Assembly (NCBI GenBank): GCA_963981005.1
Contig: CAXCCM010000001.1
Span: forward strand, 1-47,142
DNA length: 47,142 nt
Direction of reading: 5' to 3'
Source of the DNA: an uncultured bacterium
Lineage (GTDB): Bacteria; Cloacimonadota; Cloacimonadia; Cloacimonadales; TCS61
The translations under genes and the position numbers were made by a program. Under the pieces are notes generated by a model that had not been told where the DNA came from, did not search any database, and worked only from the letters and a program-made list of their open reading frames with translations. This document shows, in pieces, positions 1,971 to 32,867 of the stretch (position 1 is its first letter; every line of letters begins with the position of its first letter).

Positions 1971-4166
1971 TCACTTCAGTAGTAAGCATTTTTTAACAGA
2001 CTCAGATCTACCATCAATATATAATCTATAAAAATATATTCCAGAGCTTACCTGTTTATTGTTGGAATCTTCCCCATTCCAAACAATCGAATGTTTCCCT
2101 GCCGAAATATCATTGTTTAAAAGTGATCTTATCTTTTGCCCTTTTACATTGTAAATTGATAATTTAACTTTGGCTTCTTCGGGAATTGAAAAAGAGATCG
2201 TTGTTGTTGGGTTAAATGGATTCGGATAATTATTAAGTTGAATATTTGTAAATGGTACAATTTCTGGATCAACTGAAACTAGATCTATCCATTCTTCTTG
2301 AAACTCAAGATCTATTGCTGCATATCGCAATGCACTATTAGTAAGATTTCCTCCTCCAGAAGTTTGACCGGTACAAGATCCATAATCTCCATCATCCATA
2401 AAAACAAAATGTAATTTTGCATGATAATTACCCGGTTCATTACTCATTATTTCCAACTTATCTCCAAGAGTAACATTTACAGGCAGCATGTCTTCAAATT
2501 CAGGAGCATAATTCCCATCATAATGATTAGCTGGATCGATAATATTATCGTTAGGGTTCGCATTTATGTATAAAATATCTGACCAAGTTTCACCTGAATC
2601 GTCTGAGATTATTATGCAAATTTCTGGTTGTTCAACCCATCCCCCATAATCAGGTACCTCATAAAATGCATTCTGCAGCTTTCTTCCATCATGCCATACA
2701 CCAACAACCCAATTACCATTTGATGTCATTTTACAATTACTCTCATGATAATATGCATCCTGCCAACCACCATCAGAATTGAAGAACCAGCTTGGACAAC
2801 TAGCTGGAATTATTGACTCAAGGTTCTCATCATACTCATCAATTTCACCATCTTCATTAAGATCGTATGCAATTGCTAATTGATCATCTCCGGGATCTGT
2901 ATCCTGAATATCCAGATCATAGAAACTGAATCCACCTGTAATTGTATTAAATGTAAATATTTTGGGATAAATAAACTGAGGAAAGTAATTGCCAATGTTA
3001 ATATTATCTTGTGAATTGTAGTTTACACCACTCATCCACTGTACTTTTGAGTTATCATCACCCGTGAATACTCCATTATAGTGTGATAAATCATAACTTG
3101 GAATTGCATACATTTCTTGATTACCAAACATCGGTAGACCAGTATAAGTGTTTGTTAAGTTAGGAAGTTCCTGTTTTAATTGTTGAGAATGTTTTGTGAA
3201 GGTTTCTCCATAATCATTGCTATACAAGGCAAAAAGAGAATCTGCTACATTTCCAAAGAACACAACTTTTCCATCAACATCACTTACTATCATGTCTTTA
3301 TTAACTTTTGCTATCTCATTATAATACATACTATCAAAATAAGGGAAAGGTTGCACTGTCCAATCGAATGAAGTCCAATTCAATAGATGATCTGAATTGA
3401 AATCTGTATATAAGTAAAGTGAATTGGGACCGCACCCTCCTGAACTACTTAGGTTGTTTCCATAAATATGAATTCTTCTATGCCCAGCAATTGGTGAAGG
3501 GCCAATATGAATTTGTGGCCAAATAAATTCATCATCAATATGCCCTGTAGCCTGCTCACCGATCTCAGGATTATCAATACTAATTATCGGACCTATCCAA
3601 TTCCCCGGGAAACCAGATTCATGAAATATAGAAAATGACATTGAACAATCATAACTTCCATCATATTCAACGACAGAGTGCCAAATAACAAATGGATCTG
3701 CAGTTATTGGATCTATCGCTATTGAAGTAAAACCTTCTCGAATAGAACTAAATGGATTAGCTTGTTCACTTATATTCAAGGTACCATCAGGATTCATATA
3801 ACTATAATATGCACGTCGATCAAAAGTAATATTGTCTGTTTCTGATCGAGCATAAGAAATAAATATTCCTCCTGCAGGATAACCATTTGGTTGTGAATTT
3901 TCTGGTTGAATTCTTACGTTGTGCCCGTTGTAGCTGAATGGCATGAAATCATAGAACGAGTTTATAAGAAAAGTTGTAGATTCTCCATCTCCATTGGGTA
4001 TAAAGGAATATTCCGGAGCTGGATCCTGCTCTCTGTGTCCGGTTCTTGTTCCCACGTGTGTAACTTGATGTTGAACATCAATTGCAATTTGAGACGGCTG
4101 CATAAAATCATTAGCGAATACAAATACAGATAATAAAGTAATTAAAAAGATTATAGTAATTCTCAT
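1971..4166 (-). CDS. Secreted BNR/Asp-box repeat protein (sialidase-like beta-propeller candidate) with a C-terminal T9SS sorting domain.
   Basis: There are two Asp-box motifs, SNDYGETF and SDDSGETW. The C-terminus reads NNYPNPFNPTTTISF...SGIYFYRL. I place the start at ATG 4166 (MRITIIFLITLLSVFVFA signal peptide), which is preceded by GGAGGAGAA. The ORF-track start at 4232 would add 22 aa and would overlap a TTGACA box. Confidence 0.75.
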   Translation of the reverse strand: MRITIIFLITLLSVFVFANDFMQPSQIAIDVQHQVTHVGTRTGHREQDPAPEYSFIPNGDGESTTFLINSFYDFMPFSYNGHNVRIQPENSQPNGYPAGGIFISYARSETDNITFDRRAYYSYMNPDGTLNISEQANPFSSIREGFTSIAIDPITADPFVIWHSVVEYDGSYDCSMSFSIFHESGFPGNWIGPIISIDNPEIGEQATGHIDDEFIWPQIHIGPSPIAGHRRIHIYGNNLSSSGGCGPNSLYLYTDFNSDHLLNWTSFDWTVQPFPYFDSMYYNEIAKVNKDMIVSDVDGKVVFFGNVADSLFALYSNDYGETFTKHSQQLKQELPNLTNTYTGLPMFGNQEMYAIPSYDLSHYNGVFTGDDNSKVQWMSGVNYNSQDNINIGNYFPQFIYPKIFTFNTITGGFSFYDLDIQDTDPGDDQLAIAYDLNEDGEIDEYDENLESIIPASCPSWFFNSDGGWQDAYYHESNCKMTSNGNWVVGVWHDGRKLQNAFYEVPDYGGWVEQPEICIIISDDSGETWSDILYINANPNDNIIDPANHYDGNYAPEFEDMLPVNVTLGDKLEIMSNEPGNYHAKLHFVFMDDGDYGSCTGQTSGGGNLTNSALRYAAIDLEFQEEWIDLVSVDPEIVPFTNIQLNNYPNPFNPTTTISFSIPEEAKVKLSIYNVKGQKIRSLLNNDISAGKHSIVWNGEDSNNKQVSSGIYFYRLYIDGRSESVKKCLLLK

Positions 4167-4203
4167 TTCTCCTCCCCAAAAAAAATGAAATAGCATGCCT
4201 AAA

Positions 4204-4232
4204 GATTGATTTATTTTAGATATTTTTGTCAA
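4204..4232 (-). promoter_or_regulatory. Candidate promoter for the BNR/T9SS gene; only the -35 TTGACA is clear.
   Basis: TTGACA lies on the minus strand at 4232..4227, 61 nt upstream of ATG 4166. The -10 is weak (TCAATC at 17 nt spacing). Confidence 0.3.
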
Positions 4233-10501: not shown

Positions 10502-10924
10502 ATGAATAAATTACATCTCCTGCTAATATTAGTTATTATCTTCTGTTTTTCATGTGATACAACATCACCTGAAGAGCTAGATAAAAATGCGATCTTAGAT
10601 ATTCTAGATTCAATTCAAACTAACTTCAATTTTGATGATCTTAATGGTATAATGCAAAATTATCATCAATTGTTCAATCATAATGGATATTCTTATGGCT
10701 CAGAGAGTATTAGATGGGAAATTAGATTAAATGACTTTAATGAAATGACCTTTGATAATATAGATATTGTAATTAATGGTGATTTTGCTACTGCTTCTTT
10801 TGTTATGCATCTAGATAACACTTCATTAAATGAACCTTCAGATGAGAATGGTGATTTATCGTACTTTTATTATGACTATGGTAGCTGGAAATTATGTGGT
10901 GAGGACTTTGTTATTTTACCTTAA
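10502..10924 (+). CDS. Hypothetical small secreted protein or lipoprotein.
   Basis: The ORF is 140 aa with an N-terminal hydrophobic leader ending ..FCFSC. Its ATG lies 2 nt after the upstream stop. Confidence 0.55.
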   Translation: MNKLHLLLILVIIFCFSCDTTSPEELDKNAILDILDSIQTNFNFDDLNGIMQNYHQLFNHNGYSYGSESIRWEIRLNDFNEMTFDNIDIVINGDFATASFVMHLDNTSLNEPSDENGDLSYFYYDYGSWKLCGEDFVILP

Positions 10925-11469
10925 TGCCTTGGCTGATAAGCTCCACATCCTATAAATATATTATCATTGAATTTTGTAAGATAAGTTAACTTCATTTCAA
11001 CTTTCTGAGTCTCATAATTTCTCCAGTAATACTCGATCCATCCATTATTAGACTCATTCATAAGTTTAAGAAAAGCTTTAACAAAATACTTCCCCGCTGA
11101 ATCTTTCAAGTCGATAAGATTCTTACCGATCAATGCTTCTTCTGCTCCGTGGCTTAAGACATTACCGTCCATATCAAAAACAAAAATATATAGATCTTTA
11201 AAATGGAATTTCCCAGCTTTATTTTTGAAATCTATAAAAGCTTTTTCTGTACCTACTTCTTGCATATAGATGATTGCATCAATAACCATTGCTTTTGCTT
11301 GTAGGGGCGTACCATATTTAATCATATCTTCGTGGGAAGCTAATGCAGATCCTGCATAGGTGCTCTGGTCATTTAGATTTTCCTTTATAGGATCATTTGA
11401 TTGAGGGCTTTCTGACAGTAAACTCAGACTGAATAAAGTAATAATTAATAAGATGATAAATTTTTTCAT
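10921..11469 (-). CDS. Secreted stand-alone Cache-like (Cache_2/sCache-type) ligand-binding domain protein.
   Basis: It has a signal peptide followed by KAFIDFKNK..YIFVFDMDGNVLSHG..GKNLIDLKDS.GKYF...GWIEYYW, a pattern typical of single Cache domains. The RBS is AGGAGG. There is no transmitter domain. Confidence 0.6.
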   Translation of the reverse strand: MKKFIILLIITLFSLSLLSESPQSNDPIKENLNDQSTYAGSALASHEDMIKYGTPLQAKAMVIDAIIYMQEVGTEKAFIDFKNKAGKFHFKDLYIFVFDMDGNVLSHGAEEALIGKNLIDLKDSAGKYFVKAFLKLMNESNNGWIEYYWRNYETQKVEMKLTYLTKFNDNIFIGCGAYQPRH

Positions 11470-11556: not shown

Positions 11557-11644
11557 TGGTGCAGAAGGCGGGACTTGAACCCGCACACCATTAGATGGCA
11601 CAAGATCCTTAGTCTTGCGTGTCTGCCAATTCCACCACTTCTGC
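11557..11644 (-). tRNA. tRNA-Leu, type II with a long variable arm. The anticodon reads AAG and the CCA end is encoded.
   Basis: The hand-folded cloverleaf is as follows. Acceptor stem: GCAGAAG/CTTCTGC. D stem: GTG/CAC. Anticodon stem: CAAGA/TCTTG, with loop CTAAGGA. Variable arm: GCCAT-cta-ATGGT. T arm: GCGGG-TTCAAGT-CCCGC. The 3' end is A-CCA. Confidence 0.9.
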
Positions 11645-22060: not shown

Positions 22061-22135
22061 TTAACCCCTCCGAATTATAATGAAATCACATTTATAAACA
22101 CTTGATTTGAAGTAAAGATTTTTATGTACTAATTA

Positions 22136-22188: not shown

Positions 22189-23523
22189 TTAAACTACACC
22201 ATGATCAAGCATTGCATTTGCAACTTTCATGAATCCAGCAATATTTGCGCCTTTTACATAATCTACGTAATCACCGCCTTTTCCATAAGTAACACACTGC
22301 TCGTGGATGTCTTTCATAATTCTATGAAGTTTTTCATCAACTTCTGTGCGTGTCCAATTAAAACGAAGACTATTTTGTGACATTTCAAGACCACTTGTAG
22401 CTACCCCACCAGCATTAGCTGCTTTACCTGGAGCATAAAGAATTTTTGCTTCTTGGAATACTTCTACAGCTTCTGGTGTTGAAGGCATATTAGCACCTTC
22501 TGATACACACATGCAGCCATTAGCTATAAGAAGCTTTGCATCATCTTCACCAAGTTCATTCTGTGTAGCACACGGAAGTGCAATATCACATTTAACTTCC
22601 CAAGGACGCTTCCCTTCAAAGAATGGAACATCAAATTCATCTGCATAATCTTTTACAACATCACGATTTGAAGCTCTCATTTCAAGTAAGAAGTCTACTT
22701 TATCGCCAGTTATTCCATCTTCATCATAAATGTATCCATCAGGGCCGGATAGTGTTACAACTTTTCCACCTAAATCATTTACCTTTTGAATAGCACCCCA
22801 AGAAACATTACCGAAACCTGAAACTGTTACGATCTTTCCAGAGAAATTATCACCAATGGTTTTTAACATTTCTTCAGCAAAATAAACATTTCCAAAACCT
22901 GTAGCTTCTGGTCTTATAAGGCTTCCGCCCCAGTTAAGTCCCTTACCTGTGAGAACGCCAACAAATTCATTACGAAGTTTCTTGTACATTCCAAAAAGAA
23001 ATCCGATCTCACGACCGCCAACACCAATATCACCAGCTGGCACATCTGTATTTGCACCTATATGACGGAAAAGTTCAGCCATGAAACTTTGGCAAAATCT
23101 CATGATTTCATTATCTGATTTTCCTTTAGGATCAAAATCTGATCCACCTTTACCACCACCCATTGGAAGTGTAGTCAGACTGTTTTTAAAAATTTGTTCG
23201 AAACCCAAGAATTTAAGTATACTTAATGTTACACTTGGGTGAAAGCGAAGACCACCTTTGTAAGGTCCAATTGCACTGTTAAATTCAATACGATAACCAC
23301 GGTTAACCTGTACTCCACCGTTATCATCCGTCCATGGAACTCTGAACATAATTGTTCTTTCAGGTTCTACGATCCTGTCCATTATTTTTGCTTCTTTGAA
23401 CTTGGGATTTGCCATATAAATATCCCATACCGAATCGACAACTTCCTTTACAGCCTGAAGAAATTCTGGCTGTGCAGGATTTTTTGCAGCAACTTGATCG
23501 ATGAATTTTTGCTTATCCATCAT
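22189..23523 (-). CDS. gdhA: NADP-type glutamate dehydrogenase, copy 1.
   Basis: The protein is 444 aa. It has the catalytic Lys region [18 protein letters not shown] and the dinucleotide fold VSGFGNV. The start may be the second ATG at 23520, which has better spacing from GGAGG. Confidence 0.93.
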   Translation of the reverse strand: MMDKQKFIDQVAAKNPAQPEFLQAVKEVVDSVWDIYMANPKFKEAKIMDRIVEPERTIMFRVPWTDDNGGVQVNRGYRIEFNSAIGPYKGGLRFHPSVTLSILKFLGFEQIFKNSLTTLPMGGGKGGSDFDPKGKSDNEIMRFCQSFMAELFRHIGANTDVPAGDIGVGGREIGFLFGMYKKLRNEFVGVLTGKGLNWGGSLIRPEATGFGNVYFAEEMLKTIGDNFSGKIVTVSGFGNVSWGAIQKVNDLGGKVVTLSGPDGYIYDEDGITGDKVDFLLEMRASNRDVVKDYADEFDVPFFEGKRPWEVKCDIALPCATQNELGEDDAKLLIANGCMCVSEGANMPSTPEAVEVFQEAKILYAPGKAANAGGVATSGLEMSQNSLRFNWTRTEVDEKLHRIMKDIHEQCVTYGKGGDYVDYVKGANIAGFMKVANAMLDHGVV

Positions 23524-23697: not shown

Positions 23698-23727
23698 CAA
23701 AAAAAACCCCCGAATTCTCGGGGGTTT
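23698..23727 (-). terminator. Strong intrinsic terminator after gdhA copy 2.
   Basis: AACCCCCGA-attc-TCGGGGGTT is followed on the minus strand by T9. Confidence 0.85.
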
Positions 23728-23749: not shown

Positions 23750-25102
<1,353 letters not shown>

Positions 25103-25119
25103 TTATTTTCTGGAACTAT

Positions 25120-25163
25120 ATTTTATTGCGTCAACAAACTTTAAAAACAAAACTATATGTCAA
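25120..25163 (-). promoter_or_regulatory. Candidate promoter region for gdhA copy 2.
   Basis: The minus strand has TTGACA (25163..25158) and then TTGACG-ca-ATAAAAT (25134..25120). The same TTGACG-nn-ATAAAAT block lies upstream of copy 1 at 23555..23541. Confidence 0.35.
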
Positions 25164-25191
25164 GTGTTTATATTGGCACTTAAAATTTACA

Positions 25192-28152
25192 CTATTTGAT
25201 TGTTTTAGAAATGACCGCAATTCCTTGTTTCCCATCTATTTGTGTTTTCATTGGCTCTTCTAATTCTACGTGAACAGCATACTCCCCAGATTGTTTTACA
25301 GGTAATGTTTTTAGCCATTGCCAATCAATAAAATCAGAATCTGATGAATGAGAAACAGTAAAGTAGCCAACATTCATTGCAACCAAGTTATGAAAGAAGT
25401 GACTTCCCTGTGAAGCTTCTACTGTAAAATTTTCTTGGCTTGCTTCAACAATTATTTTTGCTTTATTTATTTGTGCCCAACGTACAGGAACACCGAGGAA
25501 TCTATCACTTGTTCCCCACCTGCCTGGTCCTAATAGAATATATTCTCTATCATTCTCATCTAAATAATTATTAATTTTTTCTATCTCAGAAACAATTTTA
25601 AGAGTTTGCGTATTATCAAATTTTTCTGGATCTATAAATACAATATCCTTAATATTTTTTAAAATTCCATTTCCCATTGCTCTTGTTGTAGAAAGTATCA
25701 TTTCATCGCGCCTAATTTTATCTAATTTAATATTAATGTTTTCTTTGTTAACTGATAGTGGCCTAATCTGCAACATATAAAATGTTGGCTTATCGCAAAG
25801 GTTTACAGCAAATTCTATTTCTACTGGAACTCCACTAGCAATTTGCCCAAATTCAAGAATACGTAACAAAATATCAGAAAGTGGAAAGTTCTTATAAAAT
25901 ATGAGATTACGATAAGTTAACATTCTTGGACCACGAATAAATGACCCATCAAGAAACTGGAATCGTTCATAATCCCAAACAGAAGTGATCTCTTTGAATA
26001 CACCTTCTTTATGTGAAGATCTTATCCTCTTTTTTACAACAAAATTATCTTCACTACTCACACTTTTGTTATTTCCTATAGATAGATCAACTCCATAGAA
26101 GTCTCTCTGATTATTCTCAACAATCCCTACAGGTTCCAGTAAATTAACTCTTGGATATTTTGGACAATACCTGAATGCCCGTTCTCCATCTACAACTGCC
26201 TTTCCCAAACCAGCTGCTAATGCCACAATTCCATCTTCATGAGACATATCTTTAGGTGGATAGAAGTTATATGATTGTGCTGCTCCTGCAAAGTGAGGAT
26301 AAAAGAGATCTTCCTTGTCTTTTGAGCCAACTACTTCTTGAATTATTACTGCCATTTTCTCTTCTTCTATCTTAAAATTAATGCTCTCTATATACTTTCT
26401 GGCTCCTTCTAAAAATGGTGATGCTAATACAAGTTTTACTGCATTACATAGTTGTTTTAATCTAATATTATCATCAGTATTATTATTTGGAAGCATATAG
26501 GTTTGGTATATTCCTGCAAAAGGCTGTGATTGTGAATCTTCTAGTAAACCTGAAGATCTTATTGCCAATGGTGTTTTAATATTTTTAATTAGTACCTTTA
26601 GTTTCGAGATCAATTCGGGTGTCAAACTGCCACTCATAAAGAATTCATTTATCTCTTTATCACTACTGTTTAGAATATCATTTGAAACGACTCCGTTCTT
26701 ACTTATAAAAAGATCAAATTCATTCGTACCTATTATAGCAGTTTTTGGAATTTTCACTTTAACGTTATCATAGTCTTTTCCGATATCAACTGTTGTTAGA
26801 AGTGCGTTGAGAAAAGCCAATCCTCTTCCCTTACCACCCAATGAGCCATCTGAGAGTTGGATGATTTTATCTTCTTCAGTAAAGACTGCAGGATTAAAAT
26901 TGATAACTTTCCCACGATTTTGTGACTGCCTTACGTTCCTAATTGTATTAAGTAAATATTGCCTTATCTCTTCTGTAGAATTAAAGTCTGCCTCTGTAAT
27001 TTCTTTTAGTTTTTTGGCAATTCCAAGTTCACTATGAGCCATTAACCATGATGAAAATTGGTTTTTGTTAGTATGATACAATATTGATTCTTCAGAAATT
27101 CTCTCAAGTGTTTTTTCAAGATGATATAGTGTTCTTGCTCTTGCTAACTCAACACCCTCTGAATCAAGGAAAATAAATTCACCAAAACCCAGATTTGTTT
27201 TTAAAAATTCCTTCAGATCTTGATACAGTGTTGGTGAGTATTTATAGATGAACTCCGCATTTAGTTTTTTTACTTCATCTTCTATACTCTCATCAGCAGA
27301 TTGTAATAACAAAGGCATCGAAGGGTTTTCTTCTCTGATAACCTTTATTAGTTTTATGCCACCATGAGTTGCAAAAGTATCATTAATTTTTAAATTAGCA
27401 TTTGATATTACACTTATAATATTTTTTTTGTACTTGTTATAGATTGAAATCGCAGCTTCATAATTATGAGCCATTAATATTTTTGGACGTGCTCGCATCT
27501 TTAATCTTTTATTAATTATCTCGTTCTCTGAATCTATTAATTCTTCGGTAAGCTGCATATTAACAGAATAAATAAGTGGTAGAAAGGTTGAATAATAATC
27601 AATTGAGCTCTCAATAAGAAGAATTATTCTAATATCACCAATTTTTGTGTCGTTTTCAACATTCAAAAGATCTTCGGTTAGTTTGATCATTGCAACAAAT
27701 AACTTTGAATCTCCATTCCAAATAAAAACTTCATCAAAAGGTGACAATATTTCTGGTTTTTGTTCAACTAGTTCAATGTAAGATTTTTTATTTAGTAAAA
27801 GAAGAACAGGAAGATCAGCTCTATATTTTTTAATATAATTGCACAGTCTACCAGGTGTTTCTGCTCCGACTCGCATCATTATAATTACAGCATCAAATTT
27901 TTTATTTTCTAAAACAGAACTTATGTCATCTGTGAAAGATATTGTCGTGATACGTGGAGCCATCATTAAATTAAGTTGTTGATACTCACCAAAAACCTGT
28001 TCTGAAATCCTACTGTCCTGTTCTAATACATAAGCATCATAAATGCTTGAAATAAGCAAGATCTCCTTAATCTCTTTCTTCATTAATCGGTGAAAGATAT
28101 CTTCACCGAACTTAAATTTATTGTAATATTTATTTAAATCTTCTAATTTCAC
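25192..28152 (-). CDS. Receiver-like + receiver-like + PPDK_N-type ATP-grasp protein, paralog 1 (GTG start).
   Basis: The protein is 986 aa. The PPDK_N-like motifs are LGGKGRGLAFLN, IRSSGLLEDSQSQPFAGIYQTY, MAVIIQEVVG and LQIRPL. The N-terminal ~300 aa look like two CheY-like folds. The GTG start at 28152 has GGAG 5 nt upstream and lies 17 nt after the stop of paralog 2. Confidence 0.7.
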   Translation of the reverse strand: MKLEDLNKYYNKFKFGEDIFHRLMKKEIKEILLISSIYDAYVLEQDSRISEQVFGEYQQLNLMMAPRITTISFTDDISSVLENKKFDAVIIMMRVGAETPGRLCNYIKKYRADLPVLLLLNKKSYIELVEQKPEILSPFDEVFIWNGDSKLFVAMIKLTEDLLNVENDTKIGDIRIILLIESSIDYYSTFLPLIYSVNMQLTEELIDSENEIINKRLKMRARPKILMAHNYEAAISIYNKYKKNIISVISNANLKINDTFATHGGIKLIKVIREENPSMPLLLQSADESIEDEVKKLNAEFIYKYSPTLYQDLKEFLKTNLGFGEFIFLDSEGVELARARTLYHLEKTLERISEESILYHTNKNQFSSWLMAHSELGIAKKLKEITEADFNSTEEIRQYLLNTIRNVRQSQNRGKVINFNPAVFTEEDKIIQLSDGSLGGKGRGLAFLNALLTTVDIGKDYDNVKVKIPKTAIIGTNEFDLFISKNGVVSNDILNSSDKEINEFFMSGSLTPELISKLKVLIKNIKTPLAIRSSGLLEDSQSQPFAGIYQTYMLPNNNTDDNIRLKQLCNAVKLVLASPFLEGARKYIESINFKIEEEKMAVIIQEVVGSKDKEDLFYPHFAGAAQSYNFYPPKDMSHEDGIVALAAGLGKAVVDGERAFRYCPKYPRVNLLEPVGIVENNQRDFYGVDLSIGNNKSVSSEDNFVVKKRIRSSHKEGVFKEITSVWDYERFQFLDGSFIRGPRMLTYRNLIFYKNFPLSDILLRILEFGQIASGVPVEIEFAVNLCDKPTFYMLQIRPLSVNKENINIKLDKIRRDEMILSTTRAMGNGILKNIKDIVFIDPEKFDNTQTLKIVSEIEKINNYLDENDREYILLGPGRWGTSDRFLGVPVRWAQINKAKIIVEASQENFTVEASQGSHFFHNLVAMNVGYFTVSHSSDSDFIDWQWLKTLPVKQSGEYAVHVELEEPMKTQIDGKQGIAVISKTIK

Positions 28153-28169
28153 AATTGCTCCACATGATG

Positions 28170-31136
28170 TTAAGTTTTATAGATAAATGAAATTCCATTT
28201 CTTCCATCCATTTTTATTACAGTTGGGTCATCTGTTTGGATATGAATAAAATGTTTTGTCTTTTCTTCAAGTGGTTGTTTTTTTAACCATTCCCAATCAA
28301 TAAAATCAGTTTGGGAATCATACGGAACGGTGAAATACCCAGTATTCATAGAGATAAGATTATGGAAGAAGTGTGTTCCTTGCGAAGCATCTACAATAAA
28401 ATCTTTCATACCAGTTTCTACTATTATTTTAGCTTTATTTATTTCATGCCATTGCACAGGAATACCTAAGAATCTATCACGTGAGCCCCATCTTCCTGGA
28501 CCTATTAATATATACTGTCTATTTAGGTCTTTCATTTTTTTGTTAAGGTAATCTATCTCTTCTTTCATCTGAAGCGTTTCTAATCTATCAAAATTATCAG
28601 GATCTATAAAGATCACATCATTAATATCGGAAATTACTCCATTACCCATTCCTGCAGATGTATAAAGAAATAGTTTATCCATTTCAAGATTATCAGAATC
28701 AATATAGATTTCATCTGTATTTATTGTGAGAGGTCTTATTTGAAGTACATAGAATGTTGGTTTAATGCCCTTTGATAAATCGCTATTCAGATTCACTGCA
28801 AATTCTATCTCTATTGGAACACCCATAGCATTTTCACCGATCTCTAAAATATCTTCACAGATTTCTGCAAGTGGGAAGTAATTATTCTTAATAATGTCGG
28901 CAAATGTAACAATTTTAGGACCATTCGGTTCAGCACCGTCAACTAATCTATCATTCTCAAAATCCCATGTAGAAATTAGATGATCTAATGCTCTATGCTT
29001 TACAACATTTCTTATTTTTAGTTGGGTTACTGCTCCCTTTTCATATTCAGTAACACAAAAATCTTTATTTTGTACATCTAATGCATATAGATCTTTCTGT
29101 GATTCACCCAATAATTCATCTTGAGAAAGAAGTTCCATTTTTGGATATTTCGGTGAAAATCTGAATGCTCTGCCACCTTCAACTATTGATTTTCCCAATC
29201 CTGCCGCTAAAGAAACTATTCCATCACTATTCTTTAAATAAGAAGTTGGATAAAAATTGTATGATTGTCCAACTCCAGAAAAATGAGGATAATAGAAACC
29301 TTCGAATTGGTCCCCAACACATTCTTGAATTATTACAGCCATTTTTTCTTCTTCAAGTTTGTAGTTAATACTTTCCAGATAATTTCTTGCAGTCTTTAAG
29401 AAAACTGATGCAAATACTAGCTTGATAGCATTTTTTATTTGTATTAATCGAATCTCATCTTCTATATTATTATTTGGAAGCATAAATGTATCATAAATTC
29501 CTGCAAATGGTTGAGATTGAGAATCTTCTAACAGCCCTGAAGAGCGGACAGCAATAGGATAATCAACCTCTTCTACAAATTCAGTTAAGATATTATTTAA
29601 CTCTTCAGATATTTTGCAATTTACAAAAACTTCTTTGATCTCAATATCACTTTTCTCTACAAGCCAAGAACCAATATTGTTATTTTCTAAAAACTTATCA
29701 TATTCACTTGTTCCTATTACAAATGTTTTAGGAATTTTTATACTTACATCATTGTATTTAGTTTCGATATCCATAGAAACAAATAGCGAATTTAAAAAAG
29801 CTAATCCTCTTGCTTTACCACCAAAAGAACCATCCGCAAGCCTAATTATACCCTCTTCTATATTCAATGCATTTCTATCATATTTAAGGATTTTCCCACG
29901 TGTTCTTACATGCTTTACCTCTTTAAATATATCTATAAGTGTCTTTCTGAAATCATTAATATCATCAAAATCATCAACGTTAATAGCTTTTAATCGTTTA
30001 GAAAACAGAAACTCGCTATGCGCTGTTAACCAGGCAGAAAAATGATTGTGAATACTGTGAAATATTAATGATTCCTTTGAGATAGTTTTTAATTTCTTTC
30101 CGAAAATCTCTAATGAACCAGCACGATCAAGTTCATTCCCATCTTGATCTCTGAATATAAAATCTCCAAATCCTAAATTTCCTAAGATAAATTTCTGCAA
30201 ATCATGTAAAAGAGTTTTAGAGTTTTTATTTAGGAAGCTAACGCCTAATTTCAGAGCATCTTTTTCATTCTCTAATTCTGATGATTGCAGTAATATTGGG
30301 CATTCCACGTTATGCATTTGCATATGCCTTATTAGTTTTATGCCAGCTTTTGGGTGGATCTTCCCTTTATAATTATATCGGATATCAGAAATAATTGCAA
30401 TCACGTTTTCTTTATATTGTTCATAAGTATTTATTGCTTCTTCAAATGTGTGACAAAGTAATACTTTGGGGCGTCCTCGCATTCGATAACGCTTATTAAT
30501 GTCATTAAGCTCCTCGCTTATAAGCCTTTGCGTTTGCTTTAGGATCTCAGAATATAGTAATGGGTGAAACATTGAATAATAATGAATTGAATCTTCTACC
30601 AATAAAACAACTCTTACATGTCCAATTTCAGTATCATTTTTCACATTCCATCTATCTTCCACATATTTTATCATTGTAAGGAATATTTTACTATCTCCAT
30701 TCCAACTGAAAACGTTATCAATATACTTCATTTCATCGCTTTCTTTGTCTATTAGTCCAACATCGTTAGAAACATTAAGCAGAAGCAGAATTGGAAGATC
30801 AGGATATCCCTTTTTGATCTTCTTACTAAGTTTAAAAGGGCTTATCTCACCTATTCGCATCATTGTAATTACTAGATCAAACTTTTTTGTTTTTAGAAGT
30901 TCAAGAGCTTGAACACCAGTTGGAACACTTGTAATTCTGGGTGCAGTACTTAAATTAAGCTGCATATATTCACCATGGATTTGTTCTGAAAGTCTTCCAT
31001 CCTGTTCAAATATATATGCATCATAAAAAGTGGATACAAGCAAGATTTCATTAACTCTTTTTTTCATTAATTCATGAAAGTTATCTTCTCCAAATTTGAA
31101 TTTATTATAATAATAATTTAGTTCTTTCAAATCCAT
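28170..31136 (-). CDS. Receiver-like + receiver + PPDK_N-type ATP-grasp protein, paralog 2.
   Basis: The protein is 988 aa and is collinear with paralog 1, roughly half identical by eye and higher at the N-terminus. It has FGGKARGLAFLN and VRSSGLLEDSQSQPFAGIYDTF. The second receiver keeps LLVEDS...IISDIRY...LLQSS...FLNK. The RBS is GAGG. Confidence 0.7.
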   Translation of the reverse strand: MDLKELNYYYNKFKFGEDNFHELMKKRVNEILLVSTFYDAYIFEQDGRLSEQIHGEYMQLNLSTAPRITSVPTGVQALELLKTKKFDLVITMMRIGEISPFKLSKKIKKGYPDLPILLLLNVSNDVGLIDKESDEMKYIDNVFSWNGDSKIFLTMIKYVEDRWNVKNDTEIGHVRVVLLVEDSIHYYSMFHPLLYSEILKQTQRLISEELNDINKRYRMRGRPKVLLCHTFEEAINTYEQYKENVIAIISDIRYNYKGKIHPKAGIKLIRHMQMHNVECPILLQSSELENEKDALKLGVSFLNKNSKTLLHDLQKFILGNLGFGDFIFRDQDGNELDRAGSLEIFGKKLKTISKESLIFHSIHNHFSAWLTAHSEFLFSKRLKAINVDDFDDINDFRKTLIDIFKEVKHVRTRGKILKYDRNALNIEEGIIRLADGSFGGKARGLAFLNSLFVSMDIETKYNDVSIKIPKTFVIGTSEYDKFLENNNIGSWLVEKSDIEIKEVFVNCKISEELNNILTEFVEEVDYPIAVRSSGLLEDSQSQPFAGIYDTFMLPNNNIEDEIRLIQIKNAIKLVFASVFLKTARNYLESINYKLEEEKMAVIIQECVGDQFEGFYYPHFSGVGQSYNFYPTSYLKNSDGIVSLAAGLGKSIVEGGRAFRFSPKYPKMELLSQDELLGESQKDLYALDVQNKDFCVTEYEKGAVTQLKIRNVVKHRALDHLISTWDFENDRLVDGAEPNGPKIVTFADIIKNNYFPLAEICEDILEIGENAMGVPIEIEFAVNLNSDLSKGIKPTFYVLQIRPLTINTDEIYIDSDNLEMDKLFLYTSAGMGNGVISDINDVIFIDPDNFDRLETLQMKEEIDYLNKKMKDLNRQYILIGPGRWGSRDRFLGIPVQWHEINKAKIIVETGMKDFIVDASQGTHFFHNLISMNTGYFTVPYDSQTDFIDWEWLKKQPLEEKTKHFIHIQTDDPTVIKMDGRNGISFIYKT

Positions 31137-31307: not shown

Positions 31308-32867
31308 ATGAAAAAAATATTTGCTATTCTCATCGTATTATATTCTTTTAATGTAGTAGCATCTGAAATTGATTGGAATACAACACAGATCACTTCTCAA
31401 AGTTATTTCTCATTTTTAGAGGAAACATTTGAAGCAGATGCTTATTTAAATCCAATAGTAAAACCAGCAAATTATACGCGATCTGAGTTAGCTACATCTT
31501 CATTATCTAGTTTTAAAAATGCTGTAATAAATTTTTTCTCTAATGAGAAGATCCCGTCACACTTCCTTCATATTTATACACCTGACAAATTCTCTAAGAA
31601 ACCAGACAACAGTATTCATAATTATAACTTACCTTTTAATTCTTATTTGTATTTTAAATTGTTTACAGGTGCAGAATATTTTTCTAATTCTACCCAGAAT
31701 ACGAATTACACATACGTATATTATGGAACAAAATTATTTGCGAATATAAATAATACTCTTTATATTGATAGTTACTGGTGGACAGGGCATTTTGATGGTG
31801 ATGAAGAGTTTTTTAGAACATCTCCAATTATGGATAGCTGGTCTCAACACCCAAATGAAGATGAACAAATATCGGTGGATAATGCAAGTGGGAAAATTGT
31901 TTATAAAAAGAAATACGTTTACCTTAGTATTGGAAGAGGAAAACACATTATTGGAAATAACATTGGAGGAAGTATCATTTTAAATGATGCTTGTAACGAT
32001 TATGGATATTTTAGCGGTAAACTAGATTTTAAGAAATTCTCAATTTCTATGATGCACGGAACACTGGTTCCTGACAGTACAAATGTAGATCATCTTGGCG
32101 AACCCATCTACAAAGATTATAATGATAAATATTTAGTTGTAAAAAAGTTGGATTGGAAACCAAACACACATTTGCATTTTTATGCTGGAGAAGAGGTTGT
32201 ATACGGTGGGAGAAGTATAGATCCGAGTTATCTGCTTCCGCAAACTTTTTTGCGTGCCACAGAGCATAATTTGCAAGATAGAGACAATGTATTGGTATTT
32301 GGGGGAGTAAACTTTATACCCTTTTCTCAAAACACCTTCTATGCAAACTTTATATTAGATGAATTAAGCAGAAGTAAAATTTTCACAGATTGGTGGGGAA
32401 ACAAATATGCTATTCAAGTTGGAAATTCATATCTATTTAATTCTAAAAATAATTCTAGGATAACATTTGAGTTCACAGCTGTAAGACCTTGGTTGTATAC
32501 GCATAAAATTCTACATAATAAATACTCGCACGACGGTATTGGACTTGGATTCCCGGATGGCAGTAATCTTATACAATTTTCTAGTGAGCTTAACTATAAA
32601 TTACTTAGTTGCTTAACAGGCAATATTCATTCATCATATACTAAGCAGGGTAGCCTCGGAAATGATTTCAGTATAAATTACGAAACCAGACCTGATGATA
32701 CAGCAGATTGGCTAGAAGGTGATAAAACTGAAAAGATTGAAGTTAGAACAATTTTCAAGTGGCAACCACTTACGCATCACAGATTACTTTTTGGTCACTC
32801 AGCTTATAAGATCGATGAAAATGATATTGAGCATCAATTGAGCATAAGCTACCAGGCATCATATTAG
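31308..32867 (+). CDS. Putative outer-membrane beta-barrel protein. A Wzi-like capsule-assembly role is only a guess.
   Basis: It has a signal peptide (MKKIFAILIVLYSFNVVAS), a 519-aa Y/G/N-rich sequence with an alternating pattern, and a C-terminal aromatic residue (..YQASY). Confidence 0.5.
   Translation: MKKIFAILIVLYSFNVVASEIDWNTTQITSQSYFSFLEETFEADAYLNPIVKPANYTRSELATSSLSSFKNAVINFFSNEKIPSHFLHIYTPDKFSKKPDNSIHNYNLPFNSYLYFKLFTGAEYFSNSTQNTNYTYVYYGTKLFANINNTLYIDSYWWTGHFDGDEEFFRTSPIMDSWSQHPNEDEQISVDNASGKIVYKKKYVYLSIGRGKHIIGNNIGGSIILNDACNDYGYFSGKLDFKKFSISMMHGTLVPDSTNVDHLGEPIYKDYNDKYLVVKKLDWKPNTHLHFYAGEEVVYGGRSIDPSYLLPQTFLRATEHNLQDRDNVLVFGGVNFIPFSQNTFYANFILDELSRSKIFTDWWGNKYAIQVGNSYLFNSKNNSRITFEFTAVRPWLYTHKILHNKYSHDGIGLGFPDGSNLIQFSSELNYKLLSCLTGNIHSSYTKQGSLGNDFSINYETRPDDTADWLEGDKTEKIEVRTIFKWQPLTHHRLLFGHSAYKIDENDIEHQLSISYQASY

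Follow-up and report, generated by a model that had tools for sequence, protein, structure and literature searches.

Two Paralogous Genes Lie Beside a Pair of gdhA Genes

We analyzed a 47,142-nt stretch of DNA (hereafter, the window), contig CAXCCM010000001.1 of assembly GCA_963981005.1, which comes from an uncultured bacterium of the Cloacimonadota. On its minus strand, two adjacent genes, here called P1 and P2, encode large proteins in which two receiver-type domains precede a PPDK_N-type ATP-grasp domain and a C-terminal domain peculiar to the family, and two genes for glutamate dehydrogenase (GDH) follow downstream (Table 1). Relatives of P1 and P2 lie next to GDH genes across phyla, which suggested to us that the pair may take part in the regulation of GDH.

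P1 and P2 align from end to end with 48% identity (480/990, E = 0). They are collinear paralogs with a common domain order: a pseudo-receiver (REC1), a second receiver (REC2), a DUF5752-like domain, the PPDK_N ATP-grasp domain, and a C-terminal region of ∼180 amino acids (aa). The junction between the P1 stop and the P2 start reads TAA-CATCATGTGGAGCAATT-GTG, a gap of 17 nt, with GGAG located 5 nt upstream of the P2 GTG. A preliminary description of this DNA had proposed a paralog pair with a 17-nt gap and a GTG start preceded by GGAG, and the open reading frames (ORFs), the alignment, and the junction sequence all bear this out. The same description had placed a gdhA pair downstream of P2 on the same strand, which is where both genes are found. 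Locus L083, from a relative, repeats the 17-nt gap, and its upstream paralog has 86% identity to P1. The P1 sequence itself is identical to that of a protein from a Candidatus Cloacimonetes metagenome-assembled genome (MAG). A neighbor-joining tree suggests that the P1/P2 duplication arose within the Cloacimonadota.

Table 1. Features of the P1-P2-gdhA region, in window coordinates.
Feature	Position	Strand	Details and basis
P1	28170..31136	minus	988 aa, ATG start; ORF and translation
P1 REC1 (aa 28-171), pseudo-receiver	30624..31055	minus	Pfam Response_reg (PF00072) at 64-119, 32 bits; (beta-alpha)5 in model
P1 REC2 (aa 174-320)	30177..30617	minus	full phospho-acceptor set E181, D182, D251, S285, K304; family conservation, Foldseek
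P1 middle domain (aa 322-415)	29892..30173	minus	beta-hairpin and five helices; model secondary structure, PF19027
P1 PPDK_N ATP-grasp (aa 437-808)	28713..29828	minus	PF01326, E = 2.4e-39
P1 C-terminal orphan domain (aa 812-988)	28173..28703	minus	GxGNG, GPGRWGSxDRFLGIPV, SQGTH922FFHN; AF2 model, searches
P2	25192..28152	minus	986 aa, GTG start; ORF and translation
P2 PPDK_N ATP-grasp (aa 437-812)	25717..26844	minus	PF01326, E = 4e-35
P2 C-terminal orphan domain (aa 816-986)	25195..25707	minus	His918 codon 25399-25401; translation
P2-gdhA spacer, 110 nt	25082..25191	minus	conserved CTTGACAT(A/C)TA element; TTGACA at 25163..25158
gdhA paralog a	23750..25081	minus	443 aa, fingerprint SGSGNVAQ...SDS; Pfam ELFV_dehydrog and ELFV_dehydrog_N
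Hairpin terminator	23704..23727	minus	10-bp stem, 6 G-C pairs, T-run; strong, bidirectional; directly after gdhA paralog a, between the two gdhA genes
gdhA paralog b	22189..23523	minus	444 aa, fingerprint SGFGNVSWG...SGPDG; Pfam; 76% identical to a

P1 Carries a Canonical Receiver and P2 Does Not

The N-terminal ∼300 aa of both proteins had been read as two CheY-like folds. Consistent with this, the AlphaFold2 (AF2) model of full-length P1 (pLDDT 82, pTM 0.73) contains two (beta-alpha)5 units, and in a Foldseek search its first ∼320 aa match the tandem receivers of PleD with E = 5e-7, along with 3luf and single receivers. The two units differ in their acceptor residues. P1 REC1 has Met in place of Asp at the end of strand 3 and lacks the usual Ser/Thr and Lys, and in 83 of 100 family sequences the acceptor position, residue 92, is occupied by Met; REC1 is thus a pseudo-receiver, in P2 as well as in P1. 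Within this domain, residues 30-67 of P1 (window 30900-31050) form the stretch YDAxIxEQDGRLSEQ..GEY.QLNL...PR, which is unusually invariant across phyla and suggests a functional surface.

The phospho-acceptor set of P1 REC2 is well preserved in the same 100 family sequences: E181 in 98, D182 in 88, D251 in 97, S285 in 99, and K304 in 97. We checked the codon of P1 D251, which lies at 30384-30386. P2 has Asn251 (codon 27400-27402) at the equivalent acceptor position and E-S where P1 has the acidic pair E-D. An acceptor Asn together with E-[SN]-S is found in all four P2-type proteins (window, L083, L082, and L004), which range from 57 to 81% in mutual identity. Because it is common to proteins this far apart, the Asn acceptor is a maintained state rather than a random lesion. 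From these residues, P1 is predicted to be phosphorylatable and P2 is predicted not to be.

A Folded Middle Domain Precedes the ATP-Grasp Domain

The region after the receivers had been called an unassigned linker. The region does exist as described, and in the model it is a folded domain made up of a hairpin and helices, with a weak match to DUF5752 (PF19027). Against a cutoff of 23 bits, P2 scores 25.1 and the isolated P1 domain 24.3, while full-length P1 reaches only 18.2; the match spans just HMM positions ∼20-108 of 208. The DUF5752-like domain is also kept in relatives that have no receivers (e.g., P0137).

The nucleotide-binding module that follows was previously identified as PPDK_N type. 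The Pfam family PF01326 is found in both proteins, and the residues of the nucleotide site are conserved. When the P1 ATP-grasp domain was searched with Foldseek, the best match was the ATP-binding domain of Listeria rifampin phosphotransferase (RPH; 5hv6, E = 3.6e-9), with further matches to 1dik and 5jvl. Residues K441, R443, R531, E537, D538, Q604, E778, Q799, and R/K801 are each conserved in 97-99 of 100 family sequences; by their motifs (GGK, RSS, ExEF, and LQxR), we take them to correspond to the nucleotide, Mg, and phosphate site of pyruvate, phosphate dikinase (PPDK). The NCBIfam models for phosphoenolpyruvate (PEP) synthase give only 47-52 bits vs cutoffs of 598-740 (PEP_synth 52 vs 740); these models, as well as those for PigC and RPH, align just with part of the ATP-grasp domain and score far below their cutoffs. 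All of the motifs listed in the preliminary description are present in both P1 and P2: GGK[GA]RGLAFLN, [IV]RSSGLLEDSQSQPFAGIY, MAVIIQE, and LQIRPL in the ATP-grasp domain, and GPGRWG[TS]xDRFLG[VI]PVxW..INKAKIIVE and ASQG[ST]HFFHN in the tail.

The C-Terminal Domain Is an Orphan with a Conserved His

Some 190 aa had been estimated to follow LQIRPL, and the count is 185 in P1, where the motif ends at residue 803, and 187 in P2, where it ends at 799. The His codon that had been noted at 25399-25401 is correct; it encodes H918 of the lower-coordinate gene, P2, and its equivalent in P1 is H922, encoded at 28371-28373. Modeled by itself, the tail is predicted with confidence (pLDDT 86.6, pTM 0.86); the His stands at the start of a helix in this model, preceded by a Gly-containing loop of low confidence. 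This His is invariant in 43 diverse full-length sequences. The motif G-x-H-F-[FLM] is found in 147 of 150 cluster representatives (50% identity), receiver-less forms included, and the tail stands directly after PPDK_N in all eight variant proteins that we scanned with Pfam.

Neither the phospho-His swivel domain nor the PEP/pyruvate TIM barrel of the dikinases had been recognized in these proteins, and our searches agree: the Pfam scan of full-length P1 and P2 finds PF01326 and has no match to PF00391 or PF02896 at E ≤ 0.1. The tails on their own give nothing relevant against Pfam at E ≤ 10. With Foldseek, the tail model has no match in the PDB (best E = 0.11, TM ∼0.26) or in BFVD (best E = 0.11), and a profile of the tail searched against PDB sequences gives nothing relevant, only a chance galectin match with E = 1.6. 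By eye, the tail has some likeness to a swivel domain in its order of elements (hairpin, strand, strand, G-[ST]-H loop, helix, strand), and its RFLGIPV is reminiscent of RELGIPA. When the tail was aligned by hhalign with five genuine swivel domains from PDB chains, the probability was 1.7% with just 7 aligned columns. As Pfam, the PDB profile, Foldseek (PDB and BFVD), and hhalign are all negative, we rejected the tail as a diverged swivel phospho-His domain. The C-terminal domain is thus an orphan that is confidently folded in the model and has no match in the PDB, BFVD, or Pfam. Because the swivel phospho-His domain and the PEP/pyruvate barrel are both absent, P1 and P2 are not dikinases in the sense of PpsA or PPDK. 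Judged from their domains, they are predicted not to belong functionally with PpsA/PPDK and to be response regulators by virtue of the receiver domain.

The Family Is Large and Occurs in Several Forms

We used the last 189 residues as a phmmer query against 1.84 billion cluster representatives and obtained 1620 clusters (50% identity) at E ≤ 1e-3, 297 of them at E ≤ 1e-30. A scan of one genome per species gave at least 595 confirmed loci, the best 80 of which were used for the locus comparisons below. These 80 loci come from Cloacimonadota, many Bacteroidales and Marinilabiliales, Geothrix and Holophagaceae, Ignavibacteria, Calditrichia, Desulfobacterales, Spirochaetes, Gemmatimonadota, Clostridia, and a few archaeal MAGs.

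Three length classes can be distinguished: receiver-receiver proteins of ∼980-1010 aa such as those in the window, proteins of ∼560-700 aa that consist of the core only, and proteins of ∼1150-1650 aa with extra N-terminal regions. Three of the longest (P0127, P0134, and P0138, ∼1520-1650 aa) contain two PPDK_N-plus-tail units per chain. The conserved core of the family comprises the DUF5752-like domain, the PPDK_N ATP-grasp domain, and the family-specific His domain of ∼180 aa. A split form is also found (L086:5888-8860), in which a 333-aa receiver-like protein and a 619-aa core protein (PPDK_N plus tail) are encoded by separate neighboring genes, with no GDH gene within 7 kb. One clade of Bacteroidales members, clade A, has proteins of ∼1160 aa, e.g., P0271 (L045:9437-12946), with an extra N-terminal region of ∼175 aa (residues 1-180) that has no Pfam match; by eye only, this region of P0271 has the look of a GAF-type sensor.

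Relatives carry the public names "hypothetical protein", "CheY-like chemotaxis protein", "response regulator", "PEP/pyruvate-binding domain-containing protein", and, wrongly, "pyruvate, phosphate dikinase". Our literature searches found no published study of this receiver/PPDK_N/orphan-tail family, and the output of this family of response regulators is not described in the literature searched.

Family Genes Are Linked to GDH Genes across Phyla

We called and clustered the ORFs of the 80 loci, which are from species-representative genomes, and counted gdhA-type genes within 10 kb of the family gene. GDH of the gdhA type is present in 35 of the 80 loci, with 40 genes in total, and, antisense shadow ORFs aside, it is the only non-family cluster that occurs in more than 16 loci. 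Twenty-five of the 40 gdh genes lie no more than 300 bp from the family gene, and 35 lie within 1.5 kb. If the chance of finding GDH is set at 2% per locus, a generous estimate of our own from typical gdh copy numbers, the probability of 35 or more such loci among 80 is ∼1e-37. The neighborhood survey thus strongly supports the link to gdhA that the preliminary description had raised. In a Pfam census of immediate neighbors (n = 139), ELFV_dehydrog (GDH) is by far the commonest family with 24-25 occurrences, followed by receiver plus GerE proteins (LuxR-type response regulators) with 10-11, TPP_enzyme_C (KorB-type 2-oxoacid:ferredoxin oxidoreductase) with 8, and HATPase_c (histidine kinases) with 3; any other Pfam family accounts for at most 4.

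The GDH-linked loci span Cloacimonadota, Bacteroidota, Acidobacteriota (Geothrix and Holophagaceae), Ignavibacteria, Gemmatimonadota, Eisenbacteria, and archaeal MAGs, and all four relative orientations of the two genes occur. The arrangement is divergent in most Bacteroidales and convergent in Gemmatimonadota and Eisenbacteria; gdh is upstream and co-directional in Geothrix, Ignavibacteria, and one Thermoplasmatales MAG, and in arrangements such as that of the window it is downstream and co-directional. Cultured carriers with an adjacent gdh include Geothrix limicola (L020) and Marinifilum caeruleilacunae (L034). Family and gdh genes may also alternate. Two ignavibacterial loci read gdh-family-gdh-family-gdh (L073) and family-gdh-family-gdh (L067), and in L051 a gdh gene is followed, divergently, by two family genes and a second gdh. 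Among the Cloacimonadota, L083 repeats the window's order of P1-P2-gdh-gdh, in L084 a small gene separates a lone family gene from the gdh that follows, and L082 has P1-P2-gdh with two PAS histidine kinases directly upstream in the same orientation. The linkage holds for the other forms as well: in L081, a receiver-less family protein of 668 aa is followed by a LuxR-type regulator and then GDH, and the two-unit fusion P0127 (L085:7001-11920) follows a PAS-GerE regulator and lies 55 nt downstream of a GDH gene. The linkage to GDH is therefore tight, independent of orientation, found across phyla, and shared by receiver-less forms.

Two further details were observed around family genes. In L082, from a Cloacimonadota relative (69% identical), the region directly upstream of P1-P2-gdh (L082:1353-7990) encodes a multi-PAS protein of 1570 aa and a hybrid REC-PAS histidine kinase of 638 aa, and two more histidine kinases lie convergent downstream. 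Genes for KorA/KorB-type 2-oxoacid:ferredoxin oxidoreductase adjoin the family gene on its upstream side in L012, L027, L028, L036, L053, and L068, with no GDH in the fetched flanks; they are a second 2-oxoglutarate-linked neighbor.

The fingerprint of gdhA paralog a resembles that of the E. coli NADP type and the fingerprint of paralog b that of the Clostridium symbiosum NAD type; the tandem genes may encode NADP-type and NAD-type isozymes. Both subtypes, SDS and SGPDG, are also found beside family genes elsewhere. A neighbor-joining tree suggests two old Bacteroidales clades, of which A tends to adjoin SDS-type GDH and B SGPDG-type GDH. A strict one-to-one pairing of family clade with GDH subtype holds only in part, given exceptions among the Bacteroidales, and was rejected. 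We also dropped a possible link to the reversible inactivation reported for Bacteroides fragilis GDH: the 120 closest relatives of a Bacteroidales member are, where named, MAG or phylum-level records, with no named cultured Bacteroides species among them.

The Spacer before gdhA Contains a Conserved Promoter-like Element

The spacer between P2 and gdhA had been described as having no convincing terminator, and we found no terminator-like hairpin in its 110 nt. Scans for promoters and terminators were at background level except for the hairpin between the two gdhA genes, and the spacers have no match to an Rfam family. The element CTTGACAT(A/C)TA is conserved before gdhA in three Cloacimonadota loci (window 25082-25191, L083:14961-15066, and L082:13956-14055). 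In the window, it is followed after ∼19 nt by TAAAGTTTG, which resembles the Bacteroidetes TAnnTTTG box, and the whole has a promoter-like look. Read-through from P1-P2 into gdhA appears possible from the sequence of the spacer. Because the spacer carries the conserved promoter-like TTGACA element, co-transcription of P2 and gdhA is possible and not required.

Two identical copies of a 13-mer, TATAAACACTTGA, flank the gdhA pair in inverted orientation, one at 22093-22105 (+) and the other at 25160-25172 (−). The conserved TTGACA of the spacer falls within the second copy. The 13-mer could serve a regulator or be left over from a duplication; matches with up to two mismatches are at chance level, 5 vs 3.6 expected.

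P1 and P2 May Regulate GDH

We propose that P1 and P2 carry out an ATP-dependent, two-component-controlled regulation of GDH at the glutamate/2-oxoglutarate node, a reading to which we give somewhat less than an even chance. The preliminary description had read the architecture as that of a signal-gated, ATP-dependent phosphotransferase; our results support this architecture, from which such an activity would be predicted. We infer catalysis, the role of the His, the partnership of P1 with P2, and GDH as the target. In the proposed mechanism, a histidine kinase would phosphorylate P1 at D251; an input of this kind is suggested because L082 carries its two PAS histidine kinases directly upstream. 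Phosphorylation of D251 would switch on the ATP-grasp domain, probably in a P1/P2 pair in which P2 could not itself be phosphorylated. The partnership draws on the Asn acceptor that P2-type proteins keep, and that two units may act together is suggested by the proteins of the P0127 type, since these fuse two PPDK_N-plus-tail units. The ATP-grasp domain would then use ATP, H922 would probably carry the phosphoryl group or act in catalysis, and the output would be a modification of, or another ATP-dependent action on, the neighboring GDH.

Several observations weigh against this proposal. GDH is absent from the fetched flanks of 45 of the 80 loci, many of which are incomplete, and three Cloacimonadota loci (L001, L002, and L004) have no GDH within the 3-10 kb of flank available on each side. 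The window ORFs that we scanned with Pfam include no histidine kinase. The gdhA gene beside P2 has a promoter-like element of its own and probably its own promoter. What points to a phospho-His role is conservation and local geometry, because the tail has no detectable similarity to any phosphocarrier domain. Finally, the conserved residues of the nucleotide site would be equally expected for a pure ATP sensor.

A more specific version of the proposal is that the family represents a protein-modifying class, in which a two-component-gated, dikinase-derived ATP-grasp domain and a new His-bearing domain covalently modify the GDH isozymes; we consider this doubtful. An alternative that we judge unlikely is a regulated metabolic kinase or dikinase that phosphorylates not a protein but a glutamate- or 2-oxoglutarate-linked metabolite supplied or consumed by GDH or KorAB. 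Small molecules (pyruvate, rifampin, glucans, and phenols) are the substrates of the characterized PPDK_N enzymes, the best structural match is rifampin phosphotransferase, the family has two different 2-oxoglutarate-linked neighbors in GDH and the KorAB-type oxidoreductase, and the DUF5752-like and C-terminal domains could together provide a pocket for a substrate. However, the tandem receivers and the histidine kinases and LuxR-type regulators beside relatives are typical of signaling proteins, and a protein partner accounts better for the one-to-one interleaving with GDH paralogs. To the best of our knowledge, no phosphorylated derivative of glutamate or 2-oxoglutarate needs such an enzyme.

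The family could instead be a noncatalytic sensor of energy charge or of a ligand, in which the ATP-grasp domain merely binds ATP/AMP or a metabolite and the receiver gates direct binding to GDH. The linkage to GDH would be explained just as well as in the reading we favor, and no phosphocarrier or substrate domain can be recognized. We nevertheless regard it as a decidedly poor prospect: E778, Q799, R/K801, K441, R531, and the His are near-invariant across phyla, which is more than binding usually needs, and by our reading of the motifs these residues, the His apart, are presumably the Mg/phosphate-site residues that are catalytic in PPDK.

Highly improbable, in our estimate, is a self-contained relay from ATP to His to Asp, in which the ATP-grasp domain loads H922 and the phosphoryl group passes to the protein's own receiver Asp or to that of P1, independently of histidine kinases. 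Receivers can take phosphate from phospho-imidazole donors, a conserved His and a canonical acceptor Asp do occur in one polypeptide, and the failure to find a histidine kinase among the window ORFs scanned would fit. The relay is disfavored because receiver-less members keep the His, equally conserved, which argues for a role independent of the receiver; moreover, histidine kinases lie directly upstream in the close relative L082, and the relay still lacks an output. To an ordinary or decayed PEP synthase or PPDK, which the PPDK_N match and the public name "pyruvate, phosphate dikinase" might suggest, we give next to no credence, as it is refuted by the domain searches, the short non-swivel tail, and the PEP-synthase scores, and because an architecture conserved in hundreds of species is not decay.

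GDH occupies the meeting point of carbon and nitrogen metabolism. As far as we know, how bacterial GDH is controlled after translation is, a few systems aside, poorly understood. If P1 and P2 do regulate GDH, they would represent both a new class of response-regulator output and a new regulatory mechanism. If the regulation is a covalent modification of GDH, the family would give the FCB group and other anaerobes a post-translational switch devoted to the branch point of carbon and nitrogen, with an AceK-like logic. Even without an assigned function, the present analysis corrects a widespread misannotation as "pyruvate, phosphate dikinase" that distorts the metabolic reconstructions made from metagenomes.

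Other Features of the Window

Divergent from P1, a 519-aa ORF without a Pfam match lies at 31308-32867 (+); it is conserved in L083 together with the GT2 and LPG_synthase_TM genes that follow it. At 10921-11469 (−), a 182-aa ORF encodes a Cache sensor domain alone, with no output domain; just past it comes a tRNA gene (11560-11644). A PKD-repeat protein (10-1890, +) and a FlgD_ig protein (1971-4232, −) both have a C-terminal Por_Secre_tail, which marks cargo of type IX secretion.

Comparison with Known Systems

P1 and P2 share with PpsA and PPDK a homologous N-terminal ATP-grasp domain (PF01326) with the GGK, RSS, ExEF, and LQxR motifs. They differ in that the PF00391 swivel domain and the PF02896 TIM barrel are missing, receivers and a DUF5752-like domain stand in front, and an unrelated stretch of 180 aa stands behind. 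The best matches of the ATP-grasp domain by both sequence and structure are to rifampin phosphotransferase (5hv6, 5fbs) and enzymes of the PigC/RedH type, which are likewise dikinase-derived and have no PEP barrel. RPH and PigC, however, retain both a canonical swivel His domain at the C-terminus and a substrate domain of large size, neither of which is present in the P1/P2 family, and only the ATP-grasp domain aligns. Stand-alone PPDK_N subunits such as the beta subunit of phenylphosphate synthase provide a precedent for an ATP-grasp domain that works without a PEP barrel of its own, which P1 and P2 lack as well. Enzymes of the phenylphosphate synthase type rely on a separate subunit with a canonical swivel His, whereas no swivel-His partner is conserved beside the P1/P2 family in the census of 139 neighbors.

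With respect to gene linkage, AceK with isocitrate dehydrogenase and PSRP/PDRP with PpsA/PPDK are cases in which the gene for a nucleotide-using regulator is linked to that for a branch-point enzyme. The parallel is one of analogy only, as P1 and P2 have no sequence or fold relationship to these regulators and their action on GDH is something that we infer. With respect to domain design, the PleD-type regulators come closest, with a receiver and a receiver-like adaptor placed before an enzyme domain; in P1 and P2 the order is reversed, with the pseudo-receiver first, and the output is an ATP-grasp domain instead of GGDEF.

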